Positions 12,179-32,168 are shown, numbered from the stretch's first letter. The stretch: 64,000 nucleotides of DNA from an uncultured Acidobacteriota bacterium (GCA_963836075.1 CAWIIB010000009.1:1696001-1760000); one strand, 5' to 3'. The notes: generated by a model not told the origin, from the sequence alone. Numbers and translations are program-made.

Positions 12179-12193
12179 ACCTGGGGGCTGGGC

Positions 12194-12997: not shown

Positions 12998-14147
12998 CAC
13001 CGGAGACTTCGAGTCGTTCCCGCCCGGGGGGACCCTCAACTTCGCCAAGCAGATGCTCTCCTCGTTTGGCAACCGGCTCTGCCTGGTGGGGATCACCACC
13101 GACGGGCTGCCGGTGGGCCGCTGGGTGGAGCGGGAGATCGGCGGGGAGACCTACGACTACTTCGCCGTGGGCCGTCGCGCCGCATCGGCGAAGAAACCCC
13201 TGGTCCCGCCGCGCATCTCGGGATACCTGCAGCTGCGCCGCCACCGGGAGGAGATCCTGGCCCGGGGTGTGCGAAGCGTGTTCATCCAGACCCACCACGT
13301 GATGCTGGCGGTGCACGACTGGCCCTGGGAACATGTCTGTTTCCGCTTCCCCGGCGTGGAGAACCCGCTGGCCATCTCGCGCTACCCGGGGGTGCAGTTG
13401 CTGGCCCGACCCTTTGCCCGGCGGTTCTATGGCGCCGTGCAGCGGGCCGACTGCATCCTGGCCGCGGCCGATGATCAGGCGATAACCGGGATGGTGGGAC
13501 AGAGCGGCGGTCTTCTCAGCCGCGAGCAGGTGACCGGTTTCCCCACGCGGGTGGACACCGAACTGTTCCGCCCCGCCTCCCGTTCCCGCAGCCGGCAGCA
13601 GGCGGGGTTGCCGGAGACGGCGGTGGTGCTGGCCAGCTGCGGCCGGATCCACTGGGCCAAGGGCTGGAAGCTGCTGATCGACGCCTTTGCCATACTGCTC
13701 CAGACGCACCCGGACGCGTATCTCTGCTTCATCGGGGACGGCCAGGACCGGGGCCGACTGGAAACCTATGCCGCCGAGAGAGGAGTCAGCGAGCGCATCC
13801 GCATCACCGGCTTCCAGCCGCCACGCCTGGTGGCTGCCTGGCTCAATGCCGCGGACGTCTATGTCTCCGGCTCGCTGCGCGAGGGGTGGTCCACGGTGAT
13901 GATCGAAGCCCAGGGGTGCGGCCTGCCCATTGTCACCACCCGGGTGAGCAGCGCGGGGGAAATCATTGCCCCGGGCCGCACCGGGTATATTATTGACGGG
14001 CGCGACCCCGACGACTTTGCCGCGGCGGTGCGGAACGCTCTCGCCCTGGAGAACGTCGGGGATATTGCGGTGCCGCATGCTGACCGATACGCACTGAAGC
14101 ATCTGAAAGAGGATCTCGAAACGCTGTTCCCACCCTTGCGAGCGTGA
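12972..14147 (+). CDS. Glycosyltransferase family 4
   Basis: [24 protein letters not shown]. Confidence 0.88.
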
Positions 14148-14773
14148 CCATGATCAGACCCGACAACCAGCGGACCACCGGAAACGACCCGCTATCCAAT
14201 GTGCGGCCGGGGCGTTCCCCGGCAATGTTCAAGCTGCGCCTGCTGCTCAACTCGCTGCGCTCCTGGCTCTATTTCAGACTGCGGGCGCCGTGGGTCAGGA
14301 GAAGCGGGATGGTGCGCGTCCCCTGGAGCGTCAGGATGTTCTCGCCCCACCGGGACATCAGCCTGGGCAACCGGGTGCAGTTCGGCCGGGGCTGCCTGAT
14401 CCAGTGCGATTGCCGTTTCGGCGACAACATTCTGATGGCCCGGGACGTGGCGTTCATCGGACGGGACGACCACCGCTACGACATGGTGGGAGTGACTCTC
14501 TGGGATTCGCCACGGGGCGACACCAGGAAGACGGTGGTGGAGGACGATGTATGGATCGGGTTTCGGGTGACGATCCTCGCCGGGGTGACCATCGGCCGGG
14601 GCGCCATCGTCGCCGCCGGGGCCCTGGTCACCGAGGACGTTCCCCGTTACAGCATCGCCGGGGGTGTTCCCGCACGGGTCATTGGAACGAGATTCACCAC
14701 CGAACAGATTGTGGCCCACGAGGACGCTCTGGGCTACGCGGAGCGCAGCGGAACCACGGACGGGATGCCATGA
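14144..14773 (+). CDS. Hexapeptide-repeat (LbH) O-acyltransferase
   Basis: VEDDVWIG...[24 protein letters not shown]...GGVPARVI. Confidence 0.9.
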
Positions 14774-15636
14774 ACAGCTTGACCCACAGGATATTGATGA
14801 CGCGGCGGCACTGGCTGAAGCGGGTGCAGTACCTGATGATGCGGCACCCGTTGCCGTTGACCCGCCATGGCCGGCAGGCGTTCAGCACCGGGCCGCGCAT
14901 CTTTGCCAACAGTATTCCCAAGGCCGGGACGAACCTGATCAAGCGCACGGTCAACCTGCTGCCCTGCGTGGTGCCCCGCTGGACCTACCACCTGGACCAG
15001 CGGATCCCCGGCACCATGAAGCAGCTGCAGTACACCCACAAGGGCCAGGCGGTCACCGCGCACATGGGGTGGAGCGCTGATCTGGTGGCCCTGCTCAGCT
15101 CGCGGGAGTTCAGGATCCTCTTCATCCTGCGCGACCCGCGCGACGTGCTGGTCTCCTTCGTGGACTATGTCACCCGCAAGGACCCCAGCCACCTGCTCCA
15201 CGCCTACTTCAATACGCTGCCCTCGGATGACGAACGGTTGCTGGCATCGATCATCGGTGTGGACGGGCGGCATCTGCCTTACGGCATTCCCCTGCTCTCG
15301 GCGGGGGAGCAGCTTGAAGCCTATCTCCCGTGGCTCGACGAGCCCGGCTGCCTGACCTTCTCCTTCGAGGACCTGGTGGGCAGTGCGGGCGGGGGCGATG
15401 ACGCGAACCAGCTGCGGACCGTCGCCGCCATCGTGGACCACCTGGGGTTGAAGGCCACCCGGAAGGAGATCGATGATCTGGCCGGCAGGGTGTTCTCCCG
15501 CAAAGTCCGGACCTTCCGCAAGGGCCGAATCAGGGACTGGCCCAACCATTTCACCGGGCGGCACAAGGAGGCGTTCAAGGAGAATGCCGGCGACACCCTG
15601 ATCAGGCTGGGCTATGAAACCGGAAATGACTGGTGA
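14770..15636 (+). CDS. Sulfotransferase domain protein
   Basis: ATGA overlap start; [28 protein letters not shown]. Confidence 0.88.
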
Positions 15637-16418
15637 GCGGAGTGGACGAACGGGTTGCAGTGAGCGGCGAGCAGTTGCTGGACTACCGGGTGGTCAACGA
15701 TGGTGCGGACCGCCTCGTCGAATCCATCGGGACCTGGATAGAAGAGGGGGACCGCTGCAGGTGGTTTGCCTGTATGAACCCGCACTCCTGGGTCGTTGCC
15801 CGGTCCAACGCTGTTTTTGCCCGGGCGCTGCGCCAGGCCGACTGGCTGGTGCCCGACGGGCAGGGCATCGTGCTGGCCTCCCGGCTGTTCGGGGGCAGGA
15901 TACGGGAACGGGTGACCGGCAGCGATGTGTTCAACGGCATCAACGGCTTCCTGGACCGCACCGGGGGTCGGGTGTTTTTCCTGGGGTCCACCGAGGAGAC
16001 CCTGGACGGCATCAGGCAACGGAGCGGCCGGGACTGGCCGGGCATTGCCATCGCGGGGACCTGGTCGCCGCCCTTCGTGCCCCGGTTTTCCGCAGAGGAC
16101 ACCGACCGGATGGTGGAGGCGATCAATGCCGCCCGGCCCCAGGTGCTCTGGGTGGGAATGACCGCGCCCAAGCAGGAGATGTGGGTTTTTGAAAATTTCC
16201 ACCGTCTGGAGACGGTGCGGTTCGCGGGGGCCATCGGTGCGGTCTTCGATTTCTACGCCGGGAATATCAGGCGCTCGCACCCGCTGTTCCTGCGGACGGG
16301 GCTGGAGTGGCTGCCCCGGCTGCTGCGGGAGCCGCGCCGGCTCTGGAGACGGAACTTCGTCTCCACACCGCTGTTCCTCTTCCACCTCACCGCCCGCCGC
16401 CTGGGAGTGAAACAATGA
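15633..16418 (+). CDS. WecB/TagA/CpsF family glycosyltransferase (GT26)
   Basis: NPH, PDGQG, RVTGSD, VGMTAPKQE, GAVFDF, GLEWLPRLLREPRRLWRR. Confidence 0.92.
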   Translation: MSGVDERVAVSGEQLLDYRVVNDGADRLVESIGTWIEEGDRCRWFACMNPHSWVVARSNAVFARALRQADWLVPDGQGIVLASRLFGGRIRERVTGSDVFNGINGFLDRTGGRVFFLGSTEETLDGIRQRSGRDWPGIAIAGTWSPPFVPRFSAEDTDRMVEAINAARPQVLWVGMTAPKQEMWVFENFHRLETVRFAGAIGAVFDFYAGNIRRSHPLFLRTGLEWLPRLLREPRRLWRRNFVSTPLFLFHLTARRLGVKQ

Positions 16419-17515
16419 CGGGTGTCCGCACCCTGTTCGCCCTGGCCGCCGGAGACCGGGCAGCGGCTCTTCCCTGCGATGCTGAGCAGACAGCTATTGA
16501 TCTGCTGGGCCCCCGGCGCTCGCTGTTCCTCCGCCTGATCCCCCGCATTACCCGTACGCTGGCCCGGGCCGGAGCTCTGGGAAGCATTTCGGAGCGCCTG
16601 GCCGCCGACCTGCACCGGTTCTCCCAGTCCCTGGTGGCCCACGACCTGCACCAGCAGCAGTGGCTCCGCCGGTTCCTCACCGAGCGGCGGCCAGGGGACA
16701 TCCCGGTGATCCTGCTCAAGGGCACCGCCTTCTCGGGGTCGCTCTATCCGCCCGATGCGCCGAGACTGTCACAGGATATCGACCTGCTGGTCAAGCCGGA
16801 ACAGTTCCACCGCATGTGCGAAATCCTCGCTGCTGAAGGGGAGCCGCTGAAGGTTGATACGGGGCGGAGATATACCTGGAGCAGGCTTTTCGAGGCCGTC
16901 TTCCGCATCCCCGGCGCGCTGCCCCTGCTGGTGGAAGTTCACCGGGATCTCACCAGGGCGCACCAGTTCCGTATCGAACACCACGGCCTCTGGGAGCGGA
17001 GCGATCAGAGCCCGGAATACCAGGACCCGGCGGTGCGCCAGCTGTCGCCGGAGGATACGCTGCTCCACCTCGCGCTGCATGAATACAGGCACGGCGCACC
17101 CCAGCCGCACAGTTACCTCGACGCCTGGTCGGTGCTCAACCGCTGGACCCCGGACCTGGGCCGGGTGGTCCAGCTGGCCCGCCGGTGGGGCTGTTCGACC
17201 ATCCTTTACTCGCTGCTCCGCCGGGTGGAATATTGGTTCGATCCGGAGGGGTGTGAAGGGGATGGCCTGGAAGGCGTGCTGCAGGCGCTGGAACCGTCAG
17301 GCATCAAAAAGGCCGTGCTGGACAGGCTATTCCCCTGCAACTGCTTCGAGCCGGTGCGCCATACCTGGCCCTGGCCCCAGCGAACCGCGTCGCTGTCGCT
17401 GCTGGACCACACCTCCCGCATACCACGCTTCGCCTTCTCCTACCTGGCCCACCGCAGCGCCGACCTGGCCCTGCTCCTCATCGATCGCATCAGCGGAGCC
17501 ACTACAGGGCGCTGA
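16415..17515 (+). CDS. Nucleotidyltransferase family protein (NTP_transf_5 type, often lasso-cluster associated)
   Basis: LLKG, RLSQDIDLLV, VEVH, DTLLHLALH; ATGA overlap with the upstream gene. Confidence 0.8.
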   Translation: MTGVRTLFALAAGDRAAALPCDAEQTAIDLLGPRRSLFLRLIPRITRTLARAGALGSISERLAADLHRFSQSLVAHDLHQQQWLRRFLTERRPGDIPVILLKGTAFSGSLYPPDAPRLSQDIDLLVKPEQFHRMCEILAAEGEPLKVDTGRRYTWSRLFEAVFRIPGALPLLVEVHRDLTRAHQFRIEHHGLWERSDQSPEYQDPAVRQLSPEDTLLHLALHEYRHGAPQPHSYLDAWSVLNRWTPDLGRVVQLARRWGCSTILYSLLRRVEYWFDPEGCEGDGLEGVLQALEPSGIKKAVLDRLFPCNCFEPVRHTWPWPQRTASLSLLDHTSRIPRFAFSYLAHRSADLALLLIDRISGATTGR

Positions 17516-17592
17516 CCGGATCTCGCCTGTCCCTTTCCCCTGACCAGGTGCCGCTCTATACTGGGGTACACCTGCTCAGTTCCGGAGGCACC

Positions 17593-19431
17593 ATGGGCGC
17601 ACTTCTGGCGGTGCTGGGGGAAGCCGGTGATCCGGCGCTTCCCGGCCTTCTTCAGCGAATGACCGAGCGATCGCCTTACTGCGGCGCCGTGGAGCGGCGG
17701 ATCGAGGGCGGACTCGCCGTGGCCGTGCAGTCACTGGGCTGGGACGCCTCGCTGGCCGTGGCTGCGGACCGGCTGGTGGCCGTGCACGGCTACCTGGGCC
17801 GCTGGGAGCGCGAGGCCCGGGGCCTGGACCTGGACCCCGCCTGGCCCGCGGCGAAGAAGCTGGCGCTGGCGCACCGCCAACTGGGGCCCGACCTGTTTCC
17901 CTTGCTGCGCGGCGAGTTTGCGCTGCTGATCCACGACCTTGAGCGGCGACACCTTCTCGTCCTGCGGGATGTGGTGGGTTGCCGGCCGCTGTTCTTTGAA
18001 CAGGCGGGAGGCCGGGCCTTTCTGGCCACCGAGATCCAGCAGGTACTGGCCGGCTCCGGCAGCACGCCGCGGTTGAACAGCGATGCCGTGGTGGACTACC
18101 TGCTCAACCGTCCGCTGGCTCGGGAGGAGACGATCCAGTTGCCCGTTCGCCGGGTGCTGCCGGGGCGGAGCTATTCCTTCGGCGGCGCCGAGCCCTGCTC
18201 CCCGCCCCGACGGACCGAATACTGGACCCCGCCGCAGGTCCGCCGCCCCGCACCCGGCATGGAGGAACTGGTCCATCAGCTGGGGTCCCTGCTGCGGAGC
18301 GCACTGCAGGCCTCCCTTCCGGACCGGCCCTTTGCGCTGGCGCTCAGCGGGGGAGTGGATTCCCCCACACTCTGGGGGCTGCTGGCCCGTCTGGCCGCCG
18401 ACGGGGACCGGCAGGCGGCAAATGGCGCCCCGTTTTCGCTGGTCTACCCGGGGATGGAGTGTGACGAGCGGCCGCTGATCGAACAGGTGCTCCAGCGCAG
18501 CGGTTCGGCTGGCCGGTTCATCGACATGACCGGCCGCGGGCCCCTGGAAGCCTACCCGGAGTTGCTGGCCATCACCGGGACGCTGTTCCCCCTGACCCTC
18601 TACCAGTTCGGCCCGCTTTTCGAAGCGGCGGGCCGCGAGGGCCGGAATGTTCTGCTCACCGGCCTGGGGCCGGACGACTGGCTGCGGGGCAATCTGGGGT
18701 ATATTCCCGACCTGCTGCTGCGGGGAAGGCTCCCCAGCGCCCTCCGCGACACGTTCACTTTCGAGCTGCCCCATGGGCTTTCCCGCCCGGCGCTGCTCAG
18801 GCGGCTCCTCGGACAGGCCGGCAGGCGTTTTCTACCCCGGTTGCGCCGCGATACCCGTCCGCCGTGGCTCACCAAAACGGCCTGGCAGCGGGCGGGAGCG
18901 GGGACATGCCGCTATCCCTGGGACCGGGTCCGCATCCCCCTGGCCCGCCGGGCCCTGCTCCGCGATCTGGAGCGCTATCGCAGCGGTCTGTTTCTCGAGC
19001 CGGCGGCCCAGTTCGCGGCCAGCGCCGGGATGGAACTGCGGCACCCGCTGCTGGGCGTGGATTTTGTGGAGTTCGCCTTCCGTTCCCCGGCCCGGGCGTT
19101 CATCGGCGGCCGGCGGTTTAAGGATCTCCTGCGCCTGTCCGCCGGAGATCTCCTGCCGCCGGAAGTTCGCGACAAGACCCGGCGGGTGGTGTTCGACTGC
19201 CTTTTCGGGCCCGCGGTCCGGCGATTTGCCGAAATTGGAAACCCGCATGGTGTTGAATGTGTACGTTGTGATATATTAACGGCTACAGAAACATCAAAGC
19301 GTTACTACAGATTGGCGACAGAAGGTACGGTTGGATCGTCCACTCTTCATGATGTTCGGATTCATATTGCGGAGAGCCTTTTCCAACATTTTCTAATGCA
19401 ACGGACAGAGGTGGGCGATAAGACCTGCTAG
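17593..19431 (+). CDS. Asparagine-synthetase-like lasso peptide cyclase (C protein)
   Basis: GEFA, RDVVGCRPLF, PP-loop ALSGGVDS, TGLGPDD, ELRHPLL; no N-terminal catalytic Cys (MGALL...); RBS GGAGG; next to the precursor and in a cluster with B1/B2. Confidence 0.85.
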   Translation: MGALLAVLGEAGDPALPGLLQRMTERSPYCGAVERRIEGGLAVAVQSLGWDASLAVAADRLVAVHGYLGRWEREARGLDLDPAWPAAKKLALAHRQLGPDLFPLLRGEFALLIHDLERRHLLVLRDVVGCRPLFFEQAGGRAFLATEIQQVLAGSGSTPRLNSDAVVDYLLNRPLAREETIQLPVRRVLPGRSYSFGGAEPCSPPRRTEYWTPPQVRRPAPGMEELVHQLGSLLRSALQASLPDRPFALALSGGVDSPTLWGLLARLAADGDRQAANGAPFSLVYPGMECDERPLIEQVLQRSGSAGRFIDMTGRGPLEAYPELLAITGTLFPLTLYQFGPLFEAAGREGRNVLLTGLGPDDWLRGNLGYIPDLLLRGRLPSALRDTFTFELPHGLSRPALLRRLLGQAGRRFLPRLRRDTRPPWLTKTAWQRAGAGTCRYPWDRVRIPLARRALLRDLERYRSGLFLEPAAQFAASAGMELRHPLLGVDFVEFAFRSPARAFIGGRRFKDLLRLSAGDLLPPEVRDKTRRVVFDCLFGPAVRRFAEIGNPHGVECVRCDILTATETSKRYYRLATEGTVGSSTLHDVRIHIAESLFQHFLMQRTEVGDKTC

Positions 19432-19452
19432 TGGATTTGCAGAGGAGGGTAA

Positions 19453-19650
19453 ATGTCAATCAGAGATTATCCAGCGTCTGCCGATCGTCCGGGCCTCGAG
19501 CCGATGGATGATCGGAAACACCCACCGTGCGGCACCGCCGGGCTGCGGCCTTATCAGCCACCGGTGGTAAAGGTCTTCCCGGTTGCCGAGTTGGTACGCA
19601 GTGGCGGCGGCTCCAACACAGATGCATTTGGTGAGGGCGAATTCGAGTAG
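19453..19650 (+). CDS. Lasso peptide precursor (A)
   Basis: RBS AGGAGG; leader YQPPVV...VAELVR followed by core SGGGSNTDAFGEGEFE with Asp at position 8. Confidence 0.8.
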   Translation: MSIRDYPASADRPGLEPMDDRKHPPCGTAGLRPYQPPVVKVFPVAELVRSGGGSNTDAFGEGEFE

Positions 19651-19743
19651 GACGTGCTCACCTCATACCGGCCACCCTGCCCGGTCAAAGCCCGTGGTCT
19701 TCACGGCATCCGGCAGGGCCGCTGGTCAGAAAGGGGAAAGGTG

Positions 19744-20388
19744 ATGGCCTTCAAGTGGAAAACGTGGACGGCCGGTTGGCTGCTCATGATCTGCTGGTTG
19801 ATGCTCCCGGCGGTTCTTGTTGCTGAAGAGGGGACGACCCCTGATGCTGATCTCATGCCAGCAGATATGTCTCCCGACATCACGAAAATGTTTGGTGCGC
19901 CCAATCCTTCCAGTGTCGGCATCGACTTCGCACCGCCTGACGGGAGTCCCCGGCCGGCACCGGTCACTGTCCGGCAGTGGACCATCCGTGACGATGACGC
20001 CGAACCCTGGTGTTTCGAGCTGGCGGCCGGCCCCTGGACCACGGTGCTTCTCGAGGACTTTACAACGGGCCCGCTCACCTCGTATGTGGAACTGAACTAC
20101 AGTGCGCAGTTCAATGTCTCCGGCGGAGCAGGTCCATTCAACGGCATCATGTTCCGGGCGCGTTTGGTGCAGGACGGCGTCGAAGCCTGGTTCCCCGGCG
20201 GTGGTGAGGGGTTCGCCCCCTTCCTCTCCCGACGGGACCTGGGTTCCAGCGGCCAGTTCATGTTCGGCAATTTTGTCGGCATGCTGAATGTGGACTCCGG
20301 TACGGAGACCCGGCTGATCATCGAACTGCGAGCCACTGATCTGGACGGCACGGCCTGTTTCCAGAACATCGTCGTACGCAACGACTAG
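19744..20388 (+). CDS. Secreted hypothetical protein, paralog 1 of 3
   Basis: Signal peptide; shared motifs PAPVTVR, TSYVEL, VQDG, FPG, ACFQN, C-terminal RND. Confidence 0.75.
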   Translation: MAFKWKTWTAGWLLMICWLMLPAVLVAEEGTTPDADLMPADMSPDITKMFGAPNPSSVGIDFAPPDGSPRPAPVTVRQWTIRDDDAEPWCFELAAGPWTTVLLEDFTTGPLTSYVELNYSAQFNVSGGAGPFNGIMFRARLVQDGVEAWFPGGGEGFAPFLSRRDLGSSGQFMFGNFVGMLNVDSGTETRLIIELRATDLDGTACFQNIVVRND

Positions 20389-20428
20389 GGATGCGGCCGG
20401 AATCAGCCGCTTAGCGGAAAGGGGAGGA

Positions 20429-21007
20429 ATGATGGCCACCAGGATCCGGAAGAGGGTTTTCAGCACGCTGCTGCTTGTCAGCTTGCTGTTTCTGCTGCCG
20501 GGCGTGGCAGCCGGGGAACCGGCTTCGCCAGGTCCGGGCCGTGCAATGAGTGTTCCCGATGGTGAAGCGCTGCCGGCACCGGTGACTGTCCGGACCATAC
20601 GCTACCATGATGACGATTCATTGCCTTTCTGCCTTGAATGTCCCGCCGGCTCATGGAGGACTCTTGCCCGGAATACCTTCAGCACAAATCCCACCACCTC
20701 CTACGTGGAACTGGATTGGACGGGACAGTTCACGGTAATCAGCACCAACCCGGCACTGGAGGGCATCCGCTTCCGGGCCGGCCTGGTCCAGGACGGACAG
20801 TCGATGGCTTTCCCCGGGGCCGGCGATGACGGTTTTCCGTTTATGGCGCGGTGCGACTTCTCCGGGCAGGGGCCCCAGTGGTTCGGCGGGTTTCACGGAA
20901 TGCTGCTGGTGGAGCCTGACACCGACACCACCCTGGTGATCCAGGTCTATTCCACTGCGCCGGAAGCCTATGCCTGCTTCCAGAACGTGACCATTCGTTA
21001 CGATTGA
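20429..21007 (+). CDS. Secreted hypothetical protein, paralog 2 of 3
   Basis: Signal peptide (…VAA); PAPVTVR, TSYVEL, VQDG, FPGAGDD, ACFQN, RYD. Confidence 0.75.
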   Translation: MMATRIRKRVFSTLLLVSLLFLLPGVAAGEPASPGPGRAMSVPDGEALPAPVTVRTIRYHDDDSLPFCLECPAGSWRTLARNTFSTNPTTSYVELDWTGQFTVISTNPALEGIRFRAGLVQDGQSMAFPGAGDDGFPFMARCDFSGQGPQWFGGFHGMLLVEPDTDTTLVIQVYSTAPEAYACFQNVTIRYD

Positions 21008-21079
21008 TCAACTTCCGGTCGCCCTCGGGCATCGGGTCACCGCAACCGGTGAAGACTGAAAACGTAAAGGGGGAAGTCG

Positions 21080-21664
21080 ATGACCTCCAGGAGCAGAAAT
21101 CGAATGTTTGCGGGAATGGTCATGGCCGCCGTGCTGCTGTTCCCGGTATGTGTGCCGGCACAGGATGCGGCGGGCACGGATGATGTGTTCTCACTCATCC
21201 CCGAGGCGATCGGCGGAGATCCGATGCCCGCGCCGGTGACCGTCCGTTTCTGGAATTACCGTGACGCGGTTGCCGAGCCGTATTGCGCGGATTTGCCGCC
21301 GGGCACCACGGTGGATCTGTTTACGCAGACCTTTACCACCAATGCCACCACCAGCTATATCGAGATGATCTGGACCGGGCAGTTCACCGTCCCTTCCGGG
21401 GTCACCGAGGACGAGGGGATTTACTTCCAGGTGCAGATGGTCCAGGACGGTGTGCCCGTCTCCTATTTCCCGGGAGCGGGGGATGACTTTCCGCCGCTGA
21501 TGACCCGGCGGGATGACAGTGCCGCAGGTCAGATGATGTTCGGCGGCTACCGGGGCATCATTGCCGCGCAGCCCAACCTGTCCACCACCATCACGGTCAG
21601 GGCGTACTCCACCCAGAAGCCCGGGCTGGCCTGCTACCAGAACCTGAGTCTGCGATACGATTGA
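21080..21664 (+). CDS. Secreted hypothetical protein, paralog 3 of 3
   Basis: Signal peptide (…VPA); PAPVTVR, TSYIEM, VQDG, FPGAGDD, ACYQN, RYD. Confidence 0.75.
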   Translation: MTSRSRNRMFAGMVMAAVLLFPVCVPAQDAAGTDDVFSLIPEAIGGDPMPAPVTVRFWNYRDAVAEPYCADLPPGTTVDLFTQTFTTNATTSYIEMIWTGQFTVPSGVTEDEGIYFQVQMVQDGVPVSYFPGAGDDFPPLMTRRDDSAAGQMMFGGYRGIIAAQPNLSTTITVRAYSTQKPGLACYQNLSLRYD

Positions 21665-22696
21665 TCGTGGTTTCTCATTGCGCTGAAATCGTCTGCCGGG
21701 GCAGCGGGGAAGGAGGCGCCGACGCCCTTCCCCTCCGGCTGCCGGTTGAAGGCGTGAGCCTTGAACTCCTCTCCGCGGCCTTGCGGCCCCTGCATCTCAC
21801 CGCCGGTCCCGGCGGAAGCCGATCGGATCTTCAGCCATCTGTTCCACCATTGCGTGTCCAGCCTCTGCCCGCACCTCTTCCCGGTGGCGGGCCGGCCGGG
21901 CGCGGAGGGCGGGTGCTGCCGCTGATCACCCGCCACCACAGCGGCGACACGCTGAAGCTGGCCGGCGGGTACGCTCCGTCTCCGGCCCGCCGGCGGCGAC
22001 ACCATCTCCTGTTCCCTGGACAGAATGTCGCAACGCCGGGGCACGCTGCCTCTGCTGCTGGAGATGGCGGTGATCCATGCGCTGGCGCTGGAGGGGATCC
22101 CGGTGTTTCACGGGGCGGGGTTCACCTTTGGCGGTGAAGCCGTGCTGGCCCTGGGCCCGAGCGGTGCGGGCAAAACCACCCTGGCGGCCGCTGCGCTCCG
22201 CGCCGGGGGGCAGGTGATCTCCGACGATTCGCTGATCGCACGCCGCCGCCGGTGCGGGGCGCTCGCAGTGCAGCCCTTCCGCCGCGACCTCCAGGTGCGG
22301 CGGGGGAGCCGCCGGCTCTTTCCCCGGGCCATCGCCCCCCTGCTGGAGCCGCTGACCGGCGCCGTGGAGCCGAAGTGGGTCCTGCGGCGTGAGGCGGCTG
22401 CATCCTGCTTCACCGATGATGTATCCTTGAGCCGCATCTGGATCCTTACCCTGGACCGCCGGTTGCGCGGCTGCCGGATCAGCCCGCTCCGCCAGGCAGA
22501 AGTGCTGGTGGCGCTGATCCAGGGCTCGTCACCGCTCTATCTTTCGGACCGCTATCCCCGGGAACGGGCGGCGCTGCTGCCGCTGCTCCGTTCGCTGGTG
22601 GAACAGGTCCCGGCTTACGGGATCCGGCTGGGCAAAGCGCTGCTGGAGGAACCGGTGGCGGAACTGGAGCGACTGCTGGCCTTTCACGGAGCTTGA
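21661..22696 (+). CDS. HPr-kinase-like P-loop kinase (lasso-associated type), frameshift near 21968
   Basis: FHGAG, GPSGAGKTT, ISDD; removing one G from GGG at 21967-21969 joins 21661.. to 22025..22696. Confidence 0.75.
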
Positions 22697-22716
22697 CCCC
22701 GCCGGAGGAGGATCGC

Positions 22717-24390
22717 ATGGCGCCGGCCATTGAAACCAGAGGACTGGGCAAGGTCTACCCCCGGGCGACCAAAGTTGCCGGGATCCCCCTCGGCTTCTCG
22801 GCCCGCGGCGGTGCTCCCGCCCTGGATGGTGTGGACCTGACCCTGGAAGAAGGGTCCATCTTCGCCCTGATGGGTCCCAATGGCGCGGGCAAATCGACCC
22901 TGGTGAAGATCCTCTGCACGCTGGTGCTGCCCAGCACCGGCCAGGCGCGGGTGGCGGGGTTCGAGTTGCAGCGCGAGCGGGAGGTCAAGTCCCGTATCGG
23001 CCTGGTCACACCCAACGAGCGGAGCTTCTTCTGGCGGCTGTCCTGCCGGGAGAACCTGCGGTTCTTTGCCGGCCTGTACGGCATCACTGGTTCCCGCGCC
23101 GAGGCGCGGGTGGCCGAGCTCTCGGATCAGCTCAACCTCGACGACGTCCTGCACAAGCGGTTCGATGCCTGCTCCACCGGTATGAAGCACCGTCTGGCCC
23201 TGGCCCGGGGGCTGATCCACCGGCCGCGGGTCCTTTTTCTCGACGAACCCACCCGGAGCCTCGACCCGCTGGCCGCCAACCGCTTCCGGCAGCTGCTGGC
23301 CCCGCTGGCCCACCATACCGGGCTGACCATTTTCCTGGTGACCCATGATCTGGAGGAGGCGGTGGAGCTGGCCCACCGGGCGGGAGTGATGGTTGACGGG
23401 AAGCTCCGGCTGTTCCAGCGGCCCGAACAGCTGCGGCAGGCCATCGGCGCGGCCAGCAGCGGCGAGGTCTCCTGGGAGTCGTTGCTGGACCATGTCGCTG
23501 CCGGACCGCCGGAGACCGTGGAGCCGCCGGCCCGTCCGGCCGTTCACGGTGAGCGCAGTGATTTTCCGGCTCCCCGGCCGGGGGCCGCCGGGCAGCTGCT
23601 GCTCTTCCTGCGGCGGGATCTGCTGACCCAGCTCAGCTACCGTTTCAACTTCCTGCTGGACATCGGCGGCGTGGCCCTGATCGTCACCGCGTTCTACTAC
23701 CTAGCCCGGCTGTTCGGGGATGGCCGGTCCACACATCTGGCCAGCACTGGCGGCGACTATTTCTCCTTCGTGCTGGTGGGCATCGCCTTTCTCGGTTATC
23801 AGAACGTGTCGCTCCGCACCTATGCCGACGCCATTCGCCGCGGTCAGCTCACCGGCACGCTGGAGCAGATGCTGGCCAGTCCCCTCTCCCTGCCGAAGAT
23901 TCTCCTTTTCTCCGGCCTCTGGCCCATCCTCTTCGGGGCGTCGCGGCTGCTGATCTACTTCCTCGTGGGCGTGCTGGTCTTCAAGGCTGACCTGGGAGCG
24001 GCCAACATCCTCGCTTCGCTGATCATCCTGCTGCTCTCCGTAATGGCGCTCAGCGGGTTCGGTCTGCTCTCCGCCAGCTTCATCATGGTCTTCAAGCGGG
24101 GTGACCCGGTGAACTTTCTTCTCGGCGGCCTTTCGGTGCTGCTGGGTGGGGTCTACTTCCCGGTGTCGGTGCTCCCGGCCTGGCTGGAGACCCTGGCCCG
24201 GTTCTTTCCCCTGCGCTACACCCTGGACGCCATGCGCGGGGCGCTGATTCGCGGGGAGCCGATCTCGGTGCTGGCCTCGGAGGCGCTGGTTCTGCTGCTG
24301 TTCAGCGTGGTGTTGCTGCCGCTGGGACTGTTCTTTTTCCGCCTGGCGGTGCGAATCACCAGACGGGCCGGCAGCCTGGGGCAGTTCTGA
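22717..24390 (+). CDS. ABC exporter, ATPase fused to an ABC-2-type permease
   Basis: Walker A GPNGAGKST, CSTGM signature, FLDEPT, VTH; C-terminal 6-TM region with GTLEQML and GVYFPVSVLPAWL. Confidence 0.88.
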   Translation: MAPAIETRGLGKVYPRATKVAGIPLGFSARGGAPALDGVDLTLEEGSIFALMGPNGAGKSTLVKILCTLVLPSTGQARVAGFELQREREVKSRIGLVTPNERSFFWRLSCRENLRFFAGLYGITGSRAEARVAELSDQLNLDDVLHKRFDACSTGMKHRLALARGLIHRPRVLFLDEPTRSLDPLAANRFRQLLAPLAHHTGLTIFLVTHDLEEAVELAHRAGVMVDGKLRLFQRPEQLRQAIGAASSGEVSWESLLDHVAAGPPETVEPPARPAVHGERSDFPAPRPGAAGQLLLFLRRDLLTQLSYRFNFLLDIGGVALIVTAFYYLARLFGDGRSTHLASTGGDYFSFVLVGIAFLGYQNVSLRTYADAIRRGQLTGTLEQMLASPLSLPKILLFSGLWPILFGASRLLIYFLVGVLVFKADLGAANILASLIILLLSVMALSGFGLLSASFIMVFKRGDPVNFLLGGLSVLLGGVYFPVSVLPAWLETLARFFPLRYTLDAMRGALIRGEPISVLASEALVLLLFSVVLLPLGLFFFRLAVRITRRAGSLGQF

Positions 24391-24429
24391 TGACGGCGGA
24401 ACGGTGCGGCAATGTGTGAAAGGGACGGC

Positions 24430-24861
24430 ATGGTGAGCGAGATCAGCCTGTTTCTCCGGGCCCTGCGACTGGTGCGCCTGGCCCAGCAGGTCAGCGCGGA
24501 GCCGGTGGACCTGGTGGCGCGGCGGATGCTCGAACAGCCGTGGCTGCCGCGCAACCTGTCACCCCCTTCGGCAGCGCGGGCGGCCGGCCGGGCCAGCCGC
24601 TGGTGGTCCCGTCTGACCACCGGGCTGGACAGCTGCCTGACCCGCACGCTGGTCACCGCGGTCCTGCTGGCCGATCGCCCCGGCGTGGTGCTGCATGTGG
24701 GTTTCCGCCCGTCGGAGGGAAGCGGGGCGCCCCACGACGGGCATGCCTGGCTCACCCTGGAGGGCCGGGATCTGCCCGAGGCCTCCACAACTGCCGAGCC
24801 CGGTGAACCATACACCGAACTGCGGACCATCCCGCTGGCCCGTGACGGAGGGGAGGGGTGA
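24430..24861 (+). CDS. Lasso peptide leader peptidase B2 (transglutaminase-like)
   Basis: Catalytic motifs SCLTRTL, VGF, GHAWL. Confidence 0.88.
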   Translation: MVSEISLFLRALRLVRLAQQVSAEPVDLVARRMLEQPWLPRNLSPPSAARAAGRASRWWSRLTTGLDSCLTRTLVTAVLLADRPGVVLHVGFRPSEGSGAPHDGHAWLTLEGRDLPEASTTAEPGEPYTELRTIPLARDGGEG

Positions 24862-25136
24862 TGAGCGTTCTTGGCGAACTGGCCCGGGCCCTCCGCTCGG
24901 ACAGCCTGGCCCGCACCGAACTGGCCGACGGCACCGGTGTGATCCTCCATCTGGATGGTGCGCAGATTTACTCGCTCAACGACACCGGCATGTTCCTCGT
25001 CGGTCGGCTCTGCGCTGGCGAGGAGAACGCCGACCAACTGGTGCGGGCCCTGGCCTCCGCCTTCAACATCGACGAAATCACCGCCCGCCGCGACCTGGAC
25101 CGCTTCGCCACCGAGCTGCATCGCCTGCTCTGCTAA
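24858..25136 (+). CDS. PqqD-family RiPP recognition element (lasso B1)
   Basis: IYSLNDTGMFL...LASAFNIDEITARRDLDRFATEL, typical RRE. Confidence 0.88.
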   Translation: MMSVLGELARALRSDSLARTELADGTGVILHLDGAQIYSLNDTGMFLVGRLCAGEENADQLVRALASAFNIDEITARRDLDRFATELHRLLC

Positions 25137-25137
25137 G

Positions 25138-25294
25138 TGGGGACAGCTACCTGGCTACCCAAGCTATTGATTTCAAACACCGCCAGGAAAGTGGGGACAG
25201 TTACCATTTTCCGATATCAATTAATTGGTGACTGTCCCCGGCTTTTCCAAGTAGTTGAAAGGCAAGTTGATGGCGGGAGAGGTAGCTGTCCCCA
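25138..25294. repeat. Nested palindromic element (REP/MITE-like)
   Basis: Outer IR TGGGGACAGCTACCT (25138-25152) / AGGTAGCTGTCCCCA (25280-25294); inner IR GGGGACAGTTACCA (25193-25206) / TGGTGACTGTCCCC (25226-25239). Confidence 0.7.
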
Positions 25295-25326
25295 TAAAAA
25301 GAGGGGCACCACTTTCGTGATGCCCC
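25295..25326 (-). terminator. Rho-independent terminator of the minus-strand acyl-CoA operon
   Basis: Minus strand GGGGCAUCAC-GAAA-GUGGUGCCCC followed by UCUUUUUA. Confidence 0.8.
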
Positions 25327-25349
25327 CCATGAACAGCGATTCAGCTGAA

Positions 25350-27440
25350 TCAGATTTTCACGGTCTTTTTATACATCCCGCCGATGACGCCGCCGAGGCA
25401 GGCCCTGGTGGTCATGAAGTCGCCGGAGTGGCGGGCCTGGACATCCAGTGCTTCGGCCAGCGGCACCGAGGTGGAACCCTTGATGTTGGCCAGGATCGCT
25501 TCGCGGCCGGCCTCCATCCCCGGGTCACCGGCCGGGCTCAGCTGGGGCACCATGTCGGCCACGCCCTGGAGCGCCCCGTCGGCGAACTCCTGTGGCGGCA
25601 GGCCGCCATCGGTGCCCGAGGCCGTCTTCCAGGCCACGGCGATGGCCTCCTCCAGCGGCCCGGCAAAGTCCACCAACCAGCCCAGGGCCTTGGGTGCCCG
25701 CACCGCCCGCCCTTCCAGGAGGAAGGAGAGCAGCCGCGGCCAGTGTTCCTTGGCCGCCCGGCGGAAGGGCCAGTGGCAGCCCTCCATGCCCGGCACCACC
25801 GGCAGGGTCACTTCCGGCATGCCCACAGAGGCATCGTCCACGGCCACCAGGTGGTGACAGTGCATCAGCAGTTCAAGCATTCCGCCCAGGGCGCGCTTGC
25901 CGTTGACAAAGCCCACCGACACGGCGAACTCGCTGCGCAGCCGGCGGGCGGTTTCGGACCAGCCCTTTGCAATGGCCACGCCCATCTCGGCGTCCTCGAG
26001 GGCGGGGAAGAAGTCGCCGGTGTCGGCGCCGGTGAGCTGGGTGGTGAGGTGGAAGTCGCCGGTGACGATCACCCGCTCGATCCCCTCGCTCTTCAGCCAG
26101 TCGATGGCGCGGCTCATCTCGGCATTGACGTCGCTATTGTATGCCTCGCGGCCGATGCTGATCACGCCCACCGTGCCGTCGTGCTCGGCATTGACGTAGA
26201 GCTGCTGCCACTCGGGCGAACCGATGGCGTCAAAGGCCTCGGGGTGCCAGGCGCCGCCCGCCGCCTCGGGGTGCAGCTGGTGATACTGCTCGACGAGAGC
26301 CCGGGATGCGTCGGCGCCGCGGGCCCGGATCACCGCCGGCAGGCCGCGGGTGAACTGGGCACAGAGCTCGCCGATGGCGTTCATGGTGGCCAGGTGCGAC
26401 CGTTTCTCGTGGACCATCAGGCTGGTCATCTGGAACATCGGTCCCAAGAGGCGGGTCTCGAACTCCTGGTTCTCCTCATCGCTCAGCGCCCAGTCCACCA
26501 GCGGGCGGAAGTGGTTCAGCGGGTACCAGTTCTGTCCGCTGATCCGCTTCTCGTTCAAAACGTCGCTGGGGGTGAACAGGTCGCCGTAGTGCTGGCTCAG
26601 GTGGTGCAGGCAGCTCCAGGTGAGGAAGTTGGCCCCGGCGGCACCGATGGCGTCGTGGGCCCGGAAGGGGTTGGGGCCGATGAGACGGCGGACGAACTTG
26701 TCGATCTTCCAGTAGGGCATGTTGCTCGCCTCGTGGTAGCGCGAGGCGGCCAGGGTCAGCCCGCAGAAGAAGACGTCGAGCACGAAGGCCCAGTCGTCGC
26801 TGACCATCATCGGGATCAGGCCCAGGGCCCAGAGCAGCTGGGTTACCGACGAGGGCTCGTTCTCCACGATCTCGTAGATCTTGTTGATCTCGTGGGGGAA
26901 GGCCGGGTGGGCGATGCCCACGCCCAGCTGCGACTGGGGAAAGCCCGAGGTGACCGAGCGGATTTCGATCCCGGGAAACGTTTTGGTGAAGATGTCGAAG
27001 TGCGCCTTCTTGATCTCGAGGATTTCGGGGATCGCTTCCAGCAGGAAGCGCGGATTGAAGTCCTTGAGGCGTGGGGGCAGGCTCTTGCCGTCGTAGGAGA
27101 ACTGCACCACGTTGGACATCACATTGGCTGCGCCATCCGCGCCGAAGGCGCGCACCAGGCCTGGGTACTGCTGGCCGATGCCGTCGGGCACGCCGGGGAA
27201 GTCGAGGGCCACGATGGGGATGCCAAAGGGCTCGAGACGGGAGCCCAGCTGCATCACCTTGCCGGCGCCGACGATGCCGTTGGCCCCGGAGACCACCAGG
27301 GCCCCCCGCCGGCCGGCCGGGCCGAAGACCTTGTCCACCAGTTCGCCGGTGTTGGCCGGCAGCTTGCCGCTGGCAAAGATGTCGATCACGTTTCCCAGGC
27401 CGAGGGTGCTGAGCGTTGAAGGCCTCATTGCGTTCTTCAT
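25350..27440 (-). CDS. 3-hydroxyacyl-CoA dehydrogenase / enoyl-CoA hydratase fusion (HAD-ECH order)
   Basis: N-terminal Rossmann-like SGANGIVGAG and LEAIPEILEIKK; C-terminal crotonase GADT, ALGGMLEL, GMPEVTL. Confidence 0.8.
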   Translation of the reverse strand: MKNAMRPSTLSTLGLGNVIDIFASGKLPANTGELVDKVFGPAGRRGALVVSGANGIVGAGKVMQLGSRLEPFGIPIVALDFPGVPDGIGQQYPGLVRAFGADGAANVMSNVVQFSYDGKSLPPRLKDFNPRFLLEAIPEILEIKKAHFDIFTKTFPGIEIRSVTSGFPQSQLGVGIAHPAFPHEINKIYEIVENEPSSVTQLLWALGLIPMMVSDDWAFVLDVFFCGLTLAASRYHEASNMPYWKIDKFVRRLIGPNPFRAHDAIGAAGANFLTWSCLHHLSQHYGDLFTPSDVLNEKRISGQNWYPLNHFRPLVDWALSDEENQEFETRLLGPMFQMTSLMVHEKRSHLATMNAIGELCAQFTRGLPAVIRARGADASRALVEQYHQLHPEAAGGAWHPEAFDAIGSPEWQQLYVNAEHDGTVGVISIGREAYNSDVNAEMSRAIDWLKSEGIERVIVTGDFHLTTQLTGADTGDFFPALEDAEMGVAIAKGWSETARRLRSEFAVSVGFVNGKRALGGMLELLMHCHHLVAVDDASVGMPEVTLPVVPGMEGCHWPFRRAAKEHWPRLLSFLLEGRAVRAPKALGWLVDFAGPLEEAIAVAWKTASGTDGGLPPQEFADGALQGVADMVPQLSPAGDPGMEAGREAILANIKGSTSVPLAEALDVQARHSGDFMTTRACLGGVIGGMYKKTVKI

Positions 27441-27455: not shown

Positions 27456-28652
27456 TCAGGAAACCTGGAAAATGGCTGCGATACCCACGTCGCCGGCGGC
27501 GCAACCGTAGATCAGCACGTAGCCGCCGCCGAGGTCCACCGCCTCTTCCAGCGCCTCGATCAGGGTGCGGGTGAGGGTGGGCCCCTGTGGGTGCCCGTAG
27601 ACCAGCGAGCAGCCGTTGTTGTTCATGTTGGTCCAGTCGCAGTCGATGATCCGGGCAAAGATGGCGTCATTGACTGCGAAGGGGTTGTGGCTCTTGACCA
27701 CCGCCATGTCCTCGAACTTCAGCCCCACGCGGTCGAACAGCTTCTTCACCGCCAGCCCCGGCGCTTCGGGCATCAGGCCGGCTACGGTCCTCAGCTCGAT
27801 CTTGGCCACCAGCCCGATCTTCACCTCGGGCTTGGGGCTCAGTTCGCGGGCTTTCTCCTCGGTGGTCATCAGCAGGCAGGCCATGCCGTCGCCGGCGTGG
27901 GTCTGGCTGCCGCCGGTGACACAGGTGTCCAACTCGCGCTGGGCGGCCAGCGAACCGGCGGAGATGCGCCGCACGCCCACATCCGAGTCGACACGGCCGA
28001 GGAAACGGCCCTGGATGTTGAGCACGTCCAGCGGCACCAGGTAGCGGTCGTGGAAGCCGGAGTCCTTCCCCTCGAAATACTGCTCGTAGCGGCGCAGGGT
28101 GATCTCGTTGACCTCCTTCAGCTCGATCTTGTATTTGCGGGCAGCGGTGCCGGCGGTGGCGATCATCGCCCCGCCGGTGGCCGGGTCGAAACCGAAGTTG
28201 TCCCAGACGTCGGCCAGGGCCATGGTCCGCTCGTAGGCCCGCCGTTCGGGGAAGACGCCCACCGGCGAGTCGCTGGCCCGGTCAAAGGTCAGCACGCCCA
28301 CGGTGTCGTAGGCCCCGCCCTCGATCTCGGCGGCGGCGAGGACCACCGACTGCAGGCCGGTGGCGCAGGCCTGCTCCATGTGGAAGCCGGGCACCCGGTG
28401 GCCCATGCAGGAGGAGACCAGCGGTGCGGTCCAGAACTTCCAGTGCCAGGGGATGGTGGAGCCGATCACCAGGTAGTCGAGGGTCGATGCCGGCACCTTG
28501 CGCAGGCCGAGGATGCGGTTCATCGCCTCGCCGGCGAACTGGCCGATGTTCACCTCGGCCAGCGCCGAGGTCTGCCAGGCGGGGAAGTAGCTGCTGCCCC
28601 ACGTGCCGTAGGGAATCCGCGCCCGGGGGAAGAGGGTGATGTCAGTCTTCAT
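27456..28652 (-). CDS. Thiolase family protein
   Basis: EQACATG (catalytic Cys), HNPFAVND, GHPQGPT, GCAAGD. Confidence 0.88.
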   Translation of the reverse strand: MKTDITLFPRARIPYGTWGSSYFPAWQTSALAEVNIGQFAGEAMNRILGLRKVPASTLDYLVIGSTIPWHWKFWTAPLVSSCMGHRVPGFHMEQACATGLQSVVLAAAEIEGGAYDTVGVLTFDRASDSPVGVFPERRAYERTMALADVWDNFGFDPATGGAMIATAGTAARKYKIELKEVNEITLRRYEQYFEGKDSGFHDRYLVPLDVLNIQGRFLGRVDSDVGVRRISAGSLAAQRELDTCVTGGSQTHAGDGMACLLMTTEEKARELSPKPEVKIGLVAKIELRTVAGLMPEAPGLAVKKLFDRVGLKFEDMAVVKSHNPFAVNDAIFARIIDCDWTNMNNNGCSLVYGHPQGPTLTRTLIEALEEAVDLGGGYVLIYGCAAGDVGIAAIFQVS

Positions 28653-28689
28653 GAAAACCTCCGGAAATCACTGCTGAATATCCCGCCCC

Positions 28690-29637: not shown

Positions 29638-29970
29638 GGCAGTGTCCCTCTCTCTGGTCAGGGCCGCTGGACGGCCCGAAACTCTGGTCAGTGGGGTAAG
29701 CCCTGACTCCTCAAGAGGTTCCGAAGTGGGGCGTGTCGAAATGTCCTCTTCAGCAGCCCGGGCAGGATGACAGAAGTCCTGTCAGCCATGATATACTCTG
29801 CTCACGACAAGTTCAATGTTTCCACCTCGTGCGGGACTGCTCCCACGGGGACATATCCGGCCCTTTCAGACTGAATGTGCCCCCAAAGAGGGATGAGACC
29901 GCACCGGTTGGATTGGTGTGGAACCCGGCCCTCAGAGCCGGGATGTGCCGTGACCCACGGAGAGGTAAAC

Positions 29971-31221: not shown

Positions 31222-31230
31222 AGGTCCGGG

Positions 31231-31337
31231 GCCGGGGACGTACATGAATATATGAATTTTTTTCGACCTGGGGTTGGAGAAGAACATAAAATTCATATAT
31301 TCATGTACGTCCCCGGCATCCCGGCATCCCGGCATCC
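31231..31337. repeat. Perfect 30-bp inverted repeat plus three copies of CCCGGCAT
   Basis: GCCGGGGACGTACATGAATATATGAATTTT (31231-31260) pairs exactly with 31288-31317; tandem 8-mer at 31312-31335. Confidence 0.8.
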
Positions 31338-32161: not shown

Positions 32162-32168
32162 GGCCTCT

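Follow-up and report, generated by a model that had tools for sequence, protein, structure and literature searches.

In Bacillota, the lasso peptide clusters of paeninodin and pseudomycoidin encode a kinase that phosphorylates a C-terminal Ser and, in pseudomycoidin, a sugar is added to the phosphate by a nucleotidyltransferase (Zhu 2016 and Zyubko 2019, as summarized in the passages seen of a review, PMC8498205). Another subclass is represented by bsf, the lasso cluster of Bradymonas sediminis FA350, and has Ile or Val at precursor position -2 as its defining trait. According to the sections consulted of its description, such precursors were also noted for Acidobacteriaceae and Sphingomonadales, phosphorylation of the linear precursor by the bsf kinase is stimulated by BsfB1, and the mature lasso peptide was never detected in five heterologous hosts (Duan 2023, PMC10368454). 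In Bacilli, paeninodin-like lasso clusters and the so-called LPP clusters are located inside capsular polysaccharide loci, whose glycan genes are suspected by the authors of adding further modifications (PMC13381572). In the passages available, LPP clusters are described as containing a kinase, a nucleotidyltransferase and a recognition element for ribosomally made peptides that carry post-translational modifications (RiPPs), with no cyclase and no B2 peptidase, and their products as linear phosphopeptides (PMC13381572). The LPP NTP-transferase was silent in a heterologous host, for which the authors suggest a missing partner. Lasso clusters with a kinase plus a nucleotidyltransferase are widespread, and their final products and roles are not known. 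Here, we analyse a 64,000-nucleotide stretch of DNA from an uncultured Acidobacteriota bacterium (GCA_963836075.1 CAWIIB010000009.1:1696001-1760000), hereafter the window, which carries on its + strand, at 16415-25136, a lasso-type cluster with a precursor (A), a cyclase (C), a recognition element (B1), a leader peptidase (B2), a kinase (K), a nucleotidyltransferase (N), an exporter (D) and three paralogous secreted proteins (Sec1-Sec3). Judged by its genes and by those of its relatives, this array very probably belongs to the Ile/Val(-2), kinase-plus-nucleotidyltransferase class of lasso systems, with the Sec proteins as a conserved accessory.

Comparison with described systems

The features of the window cluster match those of the Ile/Val(-2) kinase-type class, for which bsf was compared through its published description. 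As far as that description goes, both have genes for C, A, K, B1, B2, N and D, a YxxP leader motif, a hydrophobic Ile or Val replacing Thr at -2, and a predicted ring that joins Gly1 or Ser1 to Asp8. Both also lack a C-terminal Ser, which suggests that an internal residue is phosphorylated. They differ in the position of the conserved hydroxyl residue (5 in the window family, 3 in bsf) and of the leader Tyr (-16 and -17, respectively). Moreover, bsf comprises seven open reading frames (ORFs) and, from its text, no secreted protein, whereas three sec genes are inserted between A and K in the window, which also differs in its fused ABC-2 type exporter and its coupling to a polysaccharide locus.

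The initial annotation of this DNA, made from the sequence alone, had compared the cluster with those of paeninodin and pseudomycoidin. That is the wrong subclass, as none of the 16 precursors examined ends in Ser. Similarities with this type, to the extent that it was covered by the source, include tailoring by an HPr-kinase homologue and a nucleotidyltransferase, split B1 and B2 proteins and nearby sulfotransferase genes, while its leader motif is WxxP instead of the YxxP of the window family. The location of a RiPP cluster containing K and N within a glycosyltransferase-rich polysaccharide locus is shared with the Bacilli clusters (PMC13381572). The LPP leader carries Tyr(-16) and Pro(-13), as in the window family, and Ser3 of LPP is phosphorylated; LPP clusters differ in having a SipW-like peptidase and no cyclase and in belonging to another phylum, and no Sec-like protein is mentioned in the passages seen (PMC13381572).

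The suggestion that this might be an undescribed lasso system therefore needs to be narrowed: the cluster class and its embedding among glycan genes have both been described (PMC10368454, PMC13381572), leaving as apparently new the family of Sec proteins and the exporter of ABC-2 type. A literature search of CC-licensed PMC papers and bioRxiv turned up no lasso cluster with a partner protein that is secreted, TNF-like or a lectin. As far as these searches show, a conserved secreted family in such clusters (bsf being compared by its text), the triplication of Sec into three maintained lineages and the replacement of an MsbA-like exporter by a fused ABC-2 exporter are not in print.

A complete gene set coupled to a polysaccharide locus

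All the genes that the initial annotation had listed for 16415-25136 were recovered at the same positions on the + strand (Table 1), and its proposal of a lasso-type cluster with all of A, B1, B2 and C, plus a kinase, a nucleotidyltransferase and an exporter, was borne out by family matches. The genes form a tightly packed, co-oriented array in the order N-C-A-Sec1-Sec2-Sec3-K-D-B2-B1. Four-base start/stop overlaps occur at three junctions, namely ATGA between the WecG gene and N, TTGA between K and D, and GTGA between B2 and B1, and the other junctions in the array are gaps of 21-93 bases. These overlaps point to one transcription and translation unit continuing from the upstream glycan genes. 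The cluster had been described as fused to a glycan operon, and N is indeed translationally coupled through the ATGA overlap to the WecG gene, the last gene of the polysaccharide locus. On the opposite side, a hairpin and the convergent downstream gene constitute the 3' boundary of the cluster. A promoter scan of 15000-26000 detected no site on the + strand, Rfam and tRNA scans of the whole window returned nothing, and the G+C content is level across the cluster and both flanks. From its gene order and content, we consider the array to be operon-like and to represent a complete, well-bounded lasso-type RiPP gene set.

Table 1. Features of the lasso-type cluster and its immediate borders (window coordinates)
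Feature	Position	Strand	Evidence
WecG/TagA/CpsF-family glycosyltransferase	15633..16418	+	PF03808 E 1.1e-49; TIGR00696 117 bits (cut-off 69); stop overlaps start of N
N, nucleotidyltransferase, NTP_transf_5 family	16415..17515	+	PF14907 E 1.1e-34
C, Asn-synthetase-like macrolactam cyclase	17590..19431 (alternative GTG start 17548)	+	PF00733 Asn_synthase E 1.9e-22; GATase_7
A, precursor, 65 aa	19453..19650	+	translation; alignment with 15 precursors of related loci
Sec1, predicted secreted beta-sandwich paralogue 1	19744..20388	+	hydrophobic N-terminus; no family match
Sec2, predicted secreted beta-sandwich paralogue 2	20429..21007	+	hydrophobic N-terminus; AlphaFold2 (AF2) model
Sec3, predicted secreted beta-sandwich paralogue 3	21080..21664	+	hydrophobic N-terminus; no family match
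Stretch between Sec3 and kinase homology, 291 bases	21665..21955	+	frame-1 ORF from TTG 21661, overlapping the Sec3 stop
K, HPr-kinase-like peptide kinase, catalytic part	21956..22696 (first start ATG 22025)	+	family hidden Markov model (HMM) positions 97-337, 272 bits
D, fused ABC exporter, 565 aa, N-terminal ATPase and C-terminal ABC-2 permease	22693..24390	+	PF00005 E 5.2e-29; PF01061 E 6e-14
B2, transglutaminase-like leader peptidase	24412..24861	+	NF033537 38.8 bits (cut-off 33); PF13471 Transglut_core3
B1, PqqD-like RiPP recognition element	24858..25136	+	PF05402 46.7 bits (cut-off 23.4)
GC-rich hairpin with T-run on the - strand	25301..25328	-	12 pairs, 8 of them G-C; between cluster and convergent downstream gene

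The cyclase family and its genomic neighbourhoods

The cyclase has the PP-loop motif SGGVDS, and its N-terminus, MGALLAV, has Gly replacing Cys2, the glutaminase nucleophile. About 30 close homologues were retrieved with 32-75% identity; their block in the match list (P0009-P0040) has 35-74% identity and E-values from 1e-61 to 1e-258, after which the scores fall to 1e-29. We aligned the window protein with 20 members hand-picked from this block: SGGxDS is retained in 20 of the 21 sequences and none of them starts with MCG, 12 having MGA or VGA and two MGG, and the others having different annotated starts. Among the generic AsnB matches inspected, 9 out of 12 start with MCG (MCGI, MCGL or similar). 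The replacement of the glutaminase Cys throughout the family rules out the use of glutamine as in amidotransferases. Together with the separation of the family and the gene context, this leads us to read the Asn-synthetase homologue as a lasso cyclase. A phmmer search of the PDB with the cyclase retrieved only weak matches to a hydroxyamidotransferase and AsnB.

Scanning species-representative genomes with the cyclase-family alignment yielded 16 related loci, all on contigs of metagenome-assembled genomes (MAGs), labelled as Acidobacteria/Acidobacteriota, Thermoanaerobaculia, Holophagae, Terriglobales, Chloroflexi, Planctomycetota, Gammaproteobacteria (including Ca. Contendobacter) and 'delta proteobacterium'. 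Locus counts given below out of 17 comprise the window and these 16 loci, and are based on tblastn and HMM searches. Genes in the loci were called from our own ORF lists in high-G+C DNA, in which several greedy picks were wrong-strand or wrong-frame ORFs without matches. The precursor was found in 16 of the 17 loci, K in 15, B1 in 10, B2 in 9, N in 8, Sec in 8 and an ABC gene in 6. The initial annotation had proposed a search for homologous neighbourhoods and had named the lack of a precursor in such loci as one part of an argument against a lasso system; a precursor is present near the cyclase in 15 of the 16 related loci, as in the window. The short ORF is located just after the cyclase gene, with one gene in between in L002 and L004, and in the single locus without it (L001) the contig ends 119 bases past the cyclase match. 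The two loci without a K match, L001 and L003, are both on contigs shorter than 4 kb. L008, L014 and L016 carry cyclase, precursor, Sec and kinase, and the last two also B1. In two long-contig MAGs, the cyclase gene is in two to three pieces (L008:10001-11856 and L010:9938-11670), probably owing to single-base assembly errors.

Among the 16 related loci, homologues of N were detected in 7 and those of B1 in 9. In B2, the motifs around Cys (DSCLTR) and His (DGHAW) are conserved in all five in-frame sequences, those of the window and four homologues; the remaining three of the eight rows in the alignment were wrong-frame ORFs and were disregarded. B1 scored 38.9 bits with the Streptomyces-type model NF033530, whose cut-off of 70 was not reached. 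The best NCBIfam model for exporter D was drrA (208.5 bits), also under its cut-off (312). In the gammaproteobacterial locus L013, a sulfotransferase gene (14107-14997) directly follows the kinase gene and is itself followed by an NTP_transf_5 gene (15247-16554); a second, weak PqqD-like ORF is also present there (16466-16762, E 5.8e-5).

The precursor peptide

The 65-aa ORF downstream of the cyclase has no Pfam or NCBIfam match. Its predicted core, SGGGSNTDAFGEGEFE, is encoded at 19600-19647 and is preceded by a leader ending in RPYQPPVVKVFPVAELVR, with a predicted cleavage after Val(-2)-Arg(-1) and a predicted ring from Ser1 to Asp8. In the alignment of the 16 precursors, Tyr(-16) and Pro(-13) of the YxxP leader motif are invariant and position -2 is Val or Ile in 15, the Ile of L015 being one place off. 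Core position 1 is always Gly, Ser or Ala, Asp is found at position 8 in 13 precursors and at position 9 in the other three, and Ser or Thr occupies position 5 in 13. No precursor has a C-terminal Ser, that of the window ending in Glu. An alternative register, with the Tyr at -17 and a seven-residue ring, was rejected, as several loci would then have Pro, Ile or Asn as their first core residue. Overall, Gly, Ser, Thr and Asp abound in the cores, and bulky residues are few. The tail of the window core, AFGEGEFE, is an acidic stretch of eight residues that includes Phe10 and Phe15. The computed neutral monoisotopic masses are 1559.60 Da for the linear core, 1541.59 Da for the cyclised core and 1621.56 Da for the cyclised core with one phosphate.

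A secreted protein family associated with the precursor

Sec1-Sec3 share 36-44% mutual identity, hydrophobic N-termini, two invariant Cys residues and a C-terminal AC(F/Y)QN...R.D motif. They matched no Pfam, NCBIfam, PHROG or PADLOC entry, and a Pfam search with 44 representatives of the family gave no match either. A word-based homologue search with Sec2 as a query retrieved only six clusters, and an exhaustive profile search of 1.84 billion proteins found 45 representatives with E ≤ 1e-3, 24 of them with E ≤ 1e-10. Of these representatives, 33 were included in the family alignment (A5), the others being fragments, the longest protein and the weakest matches. An N-terminal hydrophobic stretch, crudely defined as one in which 9 or more of 12 residues are A, V, L, I, F, M or W, was recognized in 40 of the 48 aligned members.

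The initial annotation had regarded the secreted trio as inserted after the precursor. The trio was confirmed, and its insertion is not unique to the window: in 7 of the 16 related loci, the precursor is followed by a relative of it. A genome scan with patterns from the Sec alignment gave 65 pattern matches, none of which was confirmed; it was too narrow, because seven loci found later do hold Sec relatives. These were detected with an HMM built from the eight closest sequences and run over 2928 ORFs of the window and the loci, which retrieved one homologue in each of L010 (E 3.3e-44), L005 (2.3e-10), L008 (4.3e-9), L014 (1e-8), L013 (1.3e-7), L009 (6.7e-7) and L016 (1.7e-6), the next match having an E-value of 3.1. 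One iteration recovered the same seven loci at 1e-37 to 1e-68 and nothing new. In all eight Sec-bearing loci (the window and these seven), which fall under three different phylum-level labels, Sec is encoded directly after the precursor. In a tree of 21 Sec sequences, Sec1, Sec2 and Sec3 are placed in three separate clades, each containing orthologues from other sources (supports of 99/98 for Sec1, 100/99 for Sec2 and 100/99 for Sec3 with P0129). This indicates that the triplication is old and that all three copies were kept. In L008, the Sec gene seemingly lacks a signal-peptide frame, probably due to a single-base assembly error.

The AF2 model of Sec2, computed from a shallow alignment, is all-beta, with ten strands over approximately 150 residues (pLDDT 74.4, pTM 0.66). 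Foldseek searches with this model returned many weak jelly-roll matches, the best being 4jdn_C (TM-score 0.56) and 9ib6 (0.53), and they included the C-terminal TNF-like domain of Pgp3 (0.56), the TNF-like lectin PLTL (0.53), birnavirus VP2 and CBM22. In a viral structure library, phage fibre tips and giant-virus collagen-repeat proteins were matched with TM-scores of 0.4-0.6. An Atlas match to the N-terminal lectin domain of Bc2l-C (0.86) is taken as a lead only. In this model, Sec resembles the Pgp3 C-terminal domain, PLTL and the Bc2l-C N-terminal domain in being an all-beta sandwich, with these among its best structural matches, and differs from TNF-like jelly-roll proteins in showing no sequence similarity to them. 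We take Sec to be a secreted beta-sandwich protein that is possibly TNF-like.

Other genes occupy the position after the precursor elsewhere. The kinase gene directly follows it in L006, L011 and L012. In the Thermoanaerobaculia locus L007, the precursor, whose core has an Arg-rich end (..VSRQRQT), is followed by a PRMT-like methyltransferase gene (PrmA, PRMT_C; 2363-3625). In L002 (4177-5046) and L004 (12267-13034), a different secreted protein with a C-terminal sorting tail of the IPTL-CTERM type is encoded beside the precursor. Neither is related to Sec according to hhalign and BLASTP, the Sec profile matching only the signal peptide of the L004 protein, and the two show no similarity to each other past the IPTL-type tail.

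The kinase

The ORF of K taken from its first start gave only weak NCBIfam matches (HprK_rel_B, 19.4 bits; cut-off 200), and a phmmer search of the PDB with the single window kinase retrieved P-loop matches only. A profile of the kinase family placed HPr kinase/phosphatase structures first in the PDB (1ko7, E 2.1e-6, followed by 3tqf, 1jb1 and 2qmh). Among the ten kinase ORFs scanned with Pfam Hpr_kinase_C, that of L009 passed the cut-off of 33.3 (39.9 bits) and that of L004 was just under it (32.8 bits). In an alignment of 11 kinases, H52, G72, K73, T75, D90 and D91 are invariant. The published catalytic residues of BsfK are H148, G163, G166, G168, K169, S170, D186 and D187 (from the part of PMC10368454 consulted); H52, G67, G70, G72, K73, T74, D90 and D91 of the window kinase have identical spacing, both proteins being only distantly HPrK-like.

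The HPr-kinase-like nature of K that the initial annotation had recognized is therefore upheld for the catalytic part, while the reading frame is disrupted on its N-terminal side. ATG 22025 is the first ATG, GTG or TTG in the kinase frame after the in-frame stop at 21953-21955. Kinase homologues with an unambiguous start have 316-356 aa. HMM and hhalign searches for the N-terminal domain in the 291 bases upstream found nothing, this domain being poorly conserved in the family. Because the homology begins right after an in-frame stop and the N-domain is undetectable, the gene appears from its sequence to be truncated or frameshifted at its 5' side. The 5' part of K may survive, in degenerate or frameshifted form, as the 291-base stretch at 21665-21955. 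The gene is either split by a one-base error or mutation near 21950-21975, or it encodes a truncated kinase. Elsewhere in the window, a TonB-dependent receptor gene (CarboxypepD_reg and OMP_b-brl_4; - strand, 52311-55077) is split into the overlapping ORFs 53653-55077 and 52311-53768, which points to a frameshift, whether an assembly indel or a pseudogene. Given this split receptor and the cyclase genes in pieces in L008 and L010, we lean towards an assembly indel rather than decay as the cause of the kinase break.

Proposed pathway

The steps proposed up to ring closure are based on knowledge of the families and on the sections consulted of the published bsf system. In the leader, the invariant Tyr(-16)xxPro(-13) would be the site bound by B1, and K would phosphorylate the still-linear precursor on a ring residue, Ser/Thr5 being the likeliest site by analogy with Ser3 of BsfA. 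B2, together with B1, would then remove the leader after Val(-2)-Arg(-1), and C would use ATP bound at its PP-loop to activate Asp8 and join it to the amino group of Ser1, giving an eight-residue ring with AFGEGEFE as the tail, in which Phe10 or Phe15 may serve as plugs. N may decorate the phosphate with a sugar, as reported for pseudomycoidin, and D would export the product. The Sec proteins would be exported separately by the general secretion pathway. The genes, the motifs and the conserved features of the precursor are seen in the sequence; Ser5 as the phosphorylation site, the order of steps, threading and any glycosylation are inferred.

For the Sec proteins, an extracytoplasmic role in which they would bind the acidic modified peptide as a carrier, tether or receptor is tentatively put forward as the most likely one, although it is on balance doubtful; it is nearly as likely that they are unrelated, glycan-associated cargo. 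A more elaborate and quite improbable variant is that Sec1-Sec3 form an extracellular C1q/TNF-like heterotrimer binding a phosphorylated, possibly glycan-decorated lasso peptide, with the glycosyltransferases and sulfotransferases extending the decoration initiated by K and N. If so, the peptide would not be a free antibiotic but a component tethered to the matrix or surface, or else the ligand of a secreted receptor of its own. The presence of Sec with the precursor in eight loci of several phyla makes the family a testable candidate for a partner protein by which the peptide could be held, presented or sensed. It also offers a simple way of searching uncultured Acidobacteriota-like, proteobacterial and possibly Latescibacterota-like genomes for this subfamily. 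The locus merely adds one member to a published class if Sec is unrelated cargo.

Objections and alternative explanations

Several observations weigh against reading the array as a kinase-type lasso cluster with Sec as its accessory. The cyclase falls under the curated cut-off of every NCBIfam model, with 90.6 bits against 525 for the lasso cyclase model NF033535 and 103.8 against 267 for asn_synth_AEB, although NF033535 is a narrow 'exception' model, so that a low score with it says little. Thr(-2), the classical recognition residue, is replaced by Val in the window and by Val or Ile in 15 of the 16 precursors. B2 was not found in the available DNA of the three long loci L008, L014 and L016. 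The kinase homology begins 23 codons before the first start codon, directly after the stop, and the N-terminal part of the family profile, of approximately 96 positions, was not found in any frame. D is of the ABC-2 type (ABC_tran plus ABC2_membrane), in contrast to the MsbA-like exporters of L009, L011 and L016, and could serve the glycan pathway instead. The fold assignment of Sec is weak (pLDDT 74, best TM-scores of 0.4-0.6). Moreover, Sec is absent from 9 of the 17 loci, at least four of which (L006, L007, L011 and L012) have readable DNA past the precursor. This indicates that Sec is not essential to the pathway, and on the basis of gene content we regard the family as a conserved and frequent, not universal, accessory of this lasso subfamily. 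Finally, no product has been observed, nor, in the sections consulted, was a mature lasso peptide detected for bsf, the closest studied system.

The alternative explanations concern the Sec proteins, the product, the state of the cluster and the cyclase. An ordinary kinase-type lasso cluster in which the Sec trio is cargo of the polysaccharide system, such as matrix lectins, with no tie to the peptide, is a credible though minority explanation. It would account for the direct junction with a 16-kb polysaccharide locus, for the polysaccharide genes at 6 of the 17 loci, for the lectins and carbohydrate-binding modules among the nearest fold matches and for the loci without Sec. It fits less well with the placement of Sec right after the precursor, within the lasso genes and not among the glycan genes, in eight out of eight cases, or with L005, L008 and L013, which bear Sec and have no polysaccharide gene in the stretch scanned. 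As for the product, a branched-cyclic peptide, or a linear (poly)phosphorylated and possibly glycosylated peptide as in LPP, in place of a threaded lasso seems unlikely. The undetected bsf lasso and the linear phosphopeptides reported from LPP clusters, which also have K, N and a recognition element, speak for it, as do cores with few bulky residues; yet the cyclase and B2, both missing from LPP clusters in the passages seen, are present and conserved here, the conservation of position 1 and of Asp8/9 is what a ring demands, and the window core offers Phe10 and Phe15 as possible plugs.

We find it more improbable still that the cluster is decaying and inactive in its host. The in-frame stop just before the kinase homology, the 23 codons without a start, the undetectable N-domain and the split TonB-dependent receptor would agree with decay, but every other gene of the cluster is intact and retains its conserved catalytic motifs, K has a complete catalytic part and the split cyclases of long-contig L008 and L010 suggest single-base assembly errors. 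The chance that the Asn-synthetase-like gene encodes a polysaccharide amidotransferase of the glycan operon, with no RiPP involved, is next to negligible. Although the gene adjoins glycan genes and weakly matches the XrtA/PEP-CTERM model TIGR03108 (63.9 bits), this score is far under the cut-off of 816.9, the glutaminase Cys is replaced across the family, and B1, B2 and a lasso-type precursor are beside the gene in most loci. An amidotransferase-only reading is refuted on these grounds, as far as can be judged from sequence. The initial annotation had also named a grouping of the cyclase with polysaccharide amidotransferases as evidence against a lasso system; the cyclase belongs to its own family, apart from generic AsnB. 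The kinase-type lasso cluster with Sec as an accessory therefore remains our preferred interpretation.

Genomic surroundings and host

Upstream of the cluster, a long co-directional polysaccharide locus of approximately 16 kb (733-16418, + strand) ends in WecG. It encodes a Wzx-type flippase, a pyruvyl transferase, four GT1/GT4 glycosyltransferases, two sulfotransferases (12194-12997 and ~14761-15636) and a hexapeptide acetyltransferase, which suggests that its product is a sulfated, pyruvylated and acetylated glycan. A membrane protein in the polymerase position has no family match, nor do the ORFs at 6783-8528 and 8491-9723. The six loci with polysaccharide genes are the window, L009 (Wzz), L010 (GT4, heparinase II/III), L012 (GT1, carbamoyltransferase), L014 (Poly_export) and L016 (Polysacc_synt_2), making the association with lasso loci suggestive.

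Downstream, convergent genes at 27456-34356 encode a thiolase, a 3-hydroxyacyl-CoA dehydrogenase, a 2-hydroxyglutaryl-CoA-dehydratase-type subunit, a BcrAD/BadFG activator and an ADP-forming acetyl-CoA synthetase, by their annotation a fermentative gene set of the kind expected in an anaerobe. Among named relatives of this synthetase, the best are from Ca. Latescibacterota MAGs (76-77% identical), a one-gene hint of a Latescibacterota affinity of the host. The description of the host as an anaerobic diderm is plausible, given the TonB-dependent receptor, which shows that an outer membrane is present, and the nearby 2-hydroxyglutaryl-CoA dehydratase-type enzyme and activator, and falls short of proof. 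Further downstream, at 37780-42293, an ABC ATPase gene is followed by an ORF of 1198 aa with a C-terminal peptidase M1 domain and otherwise no family match.

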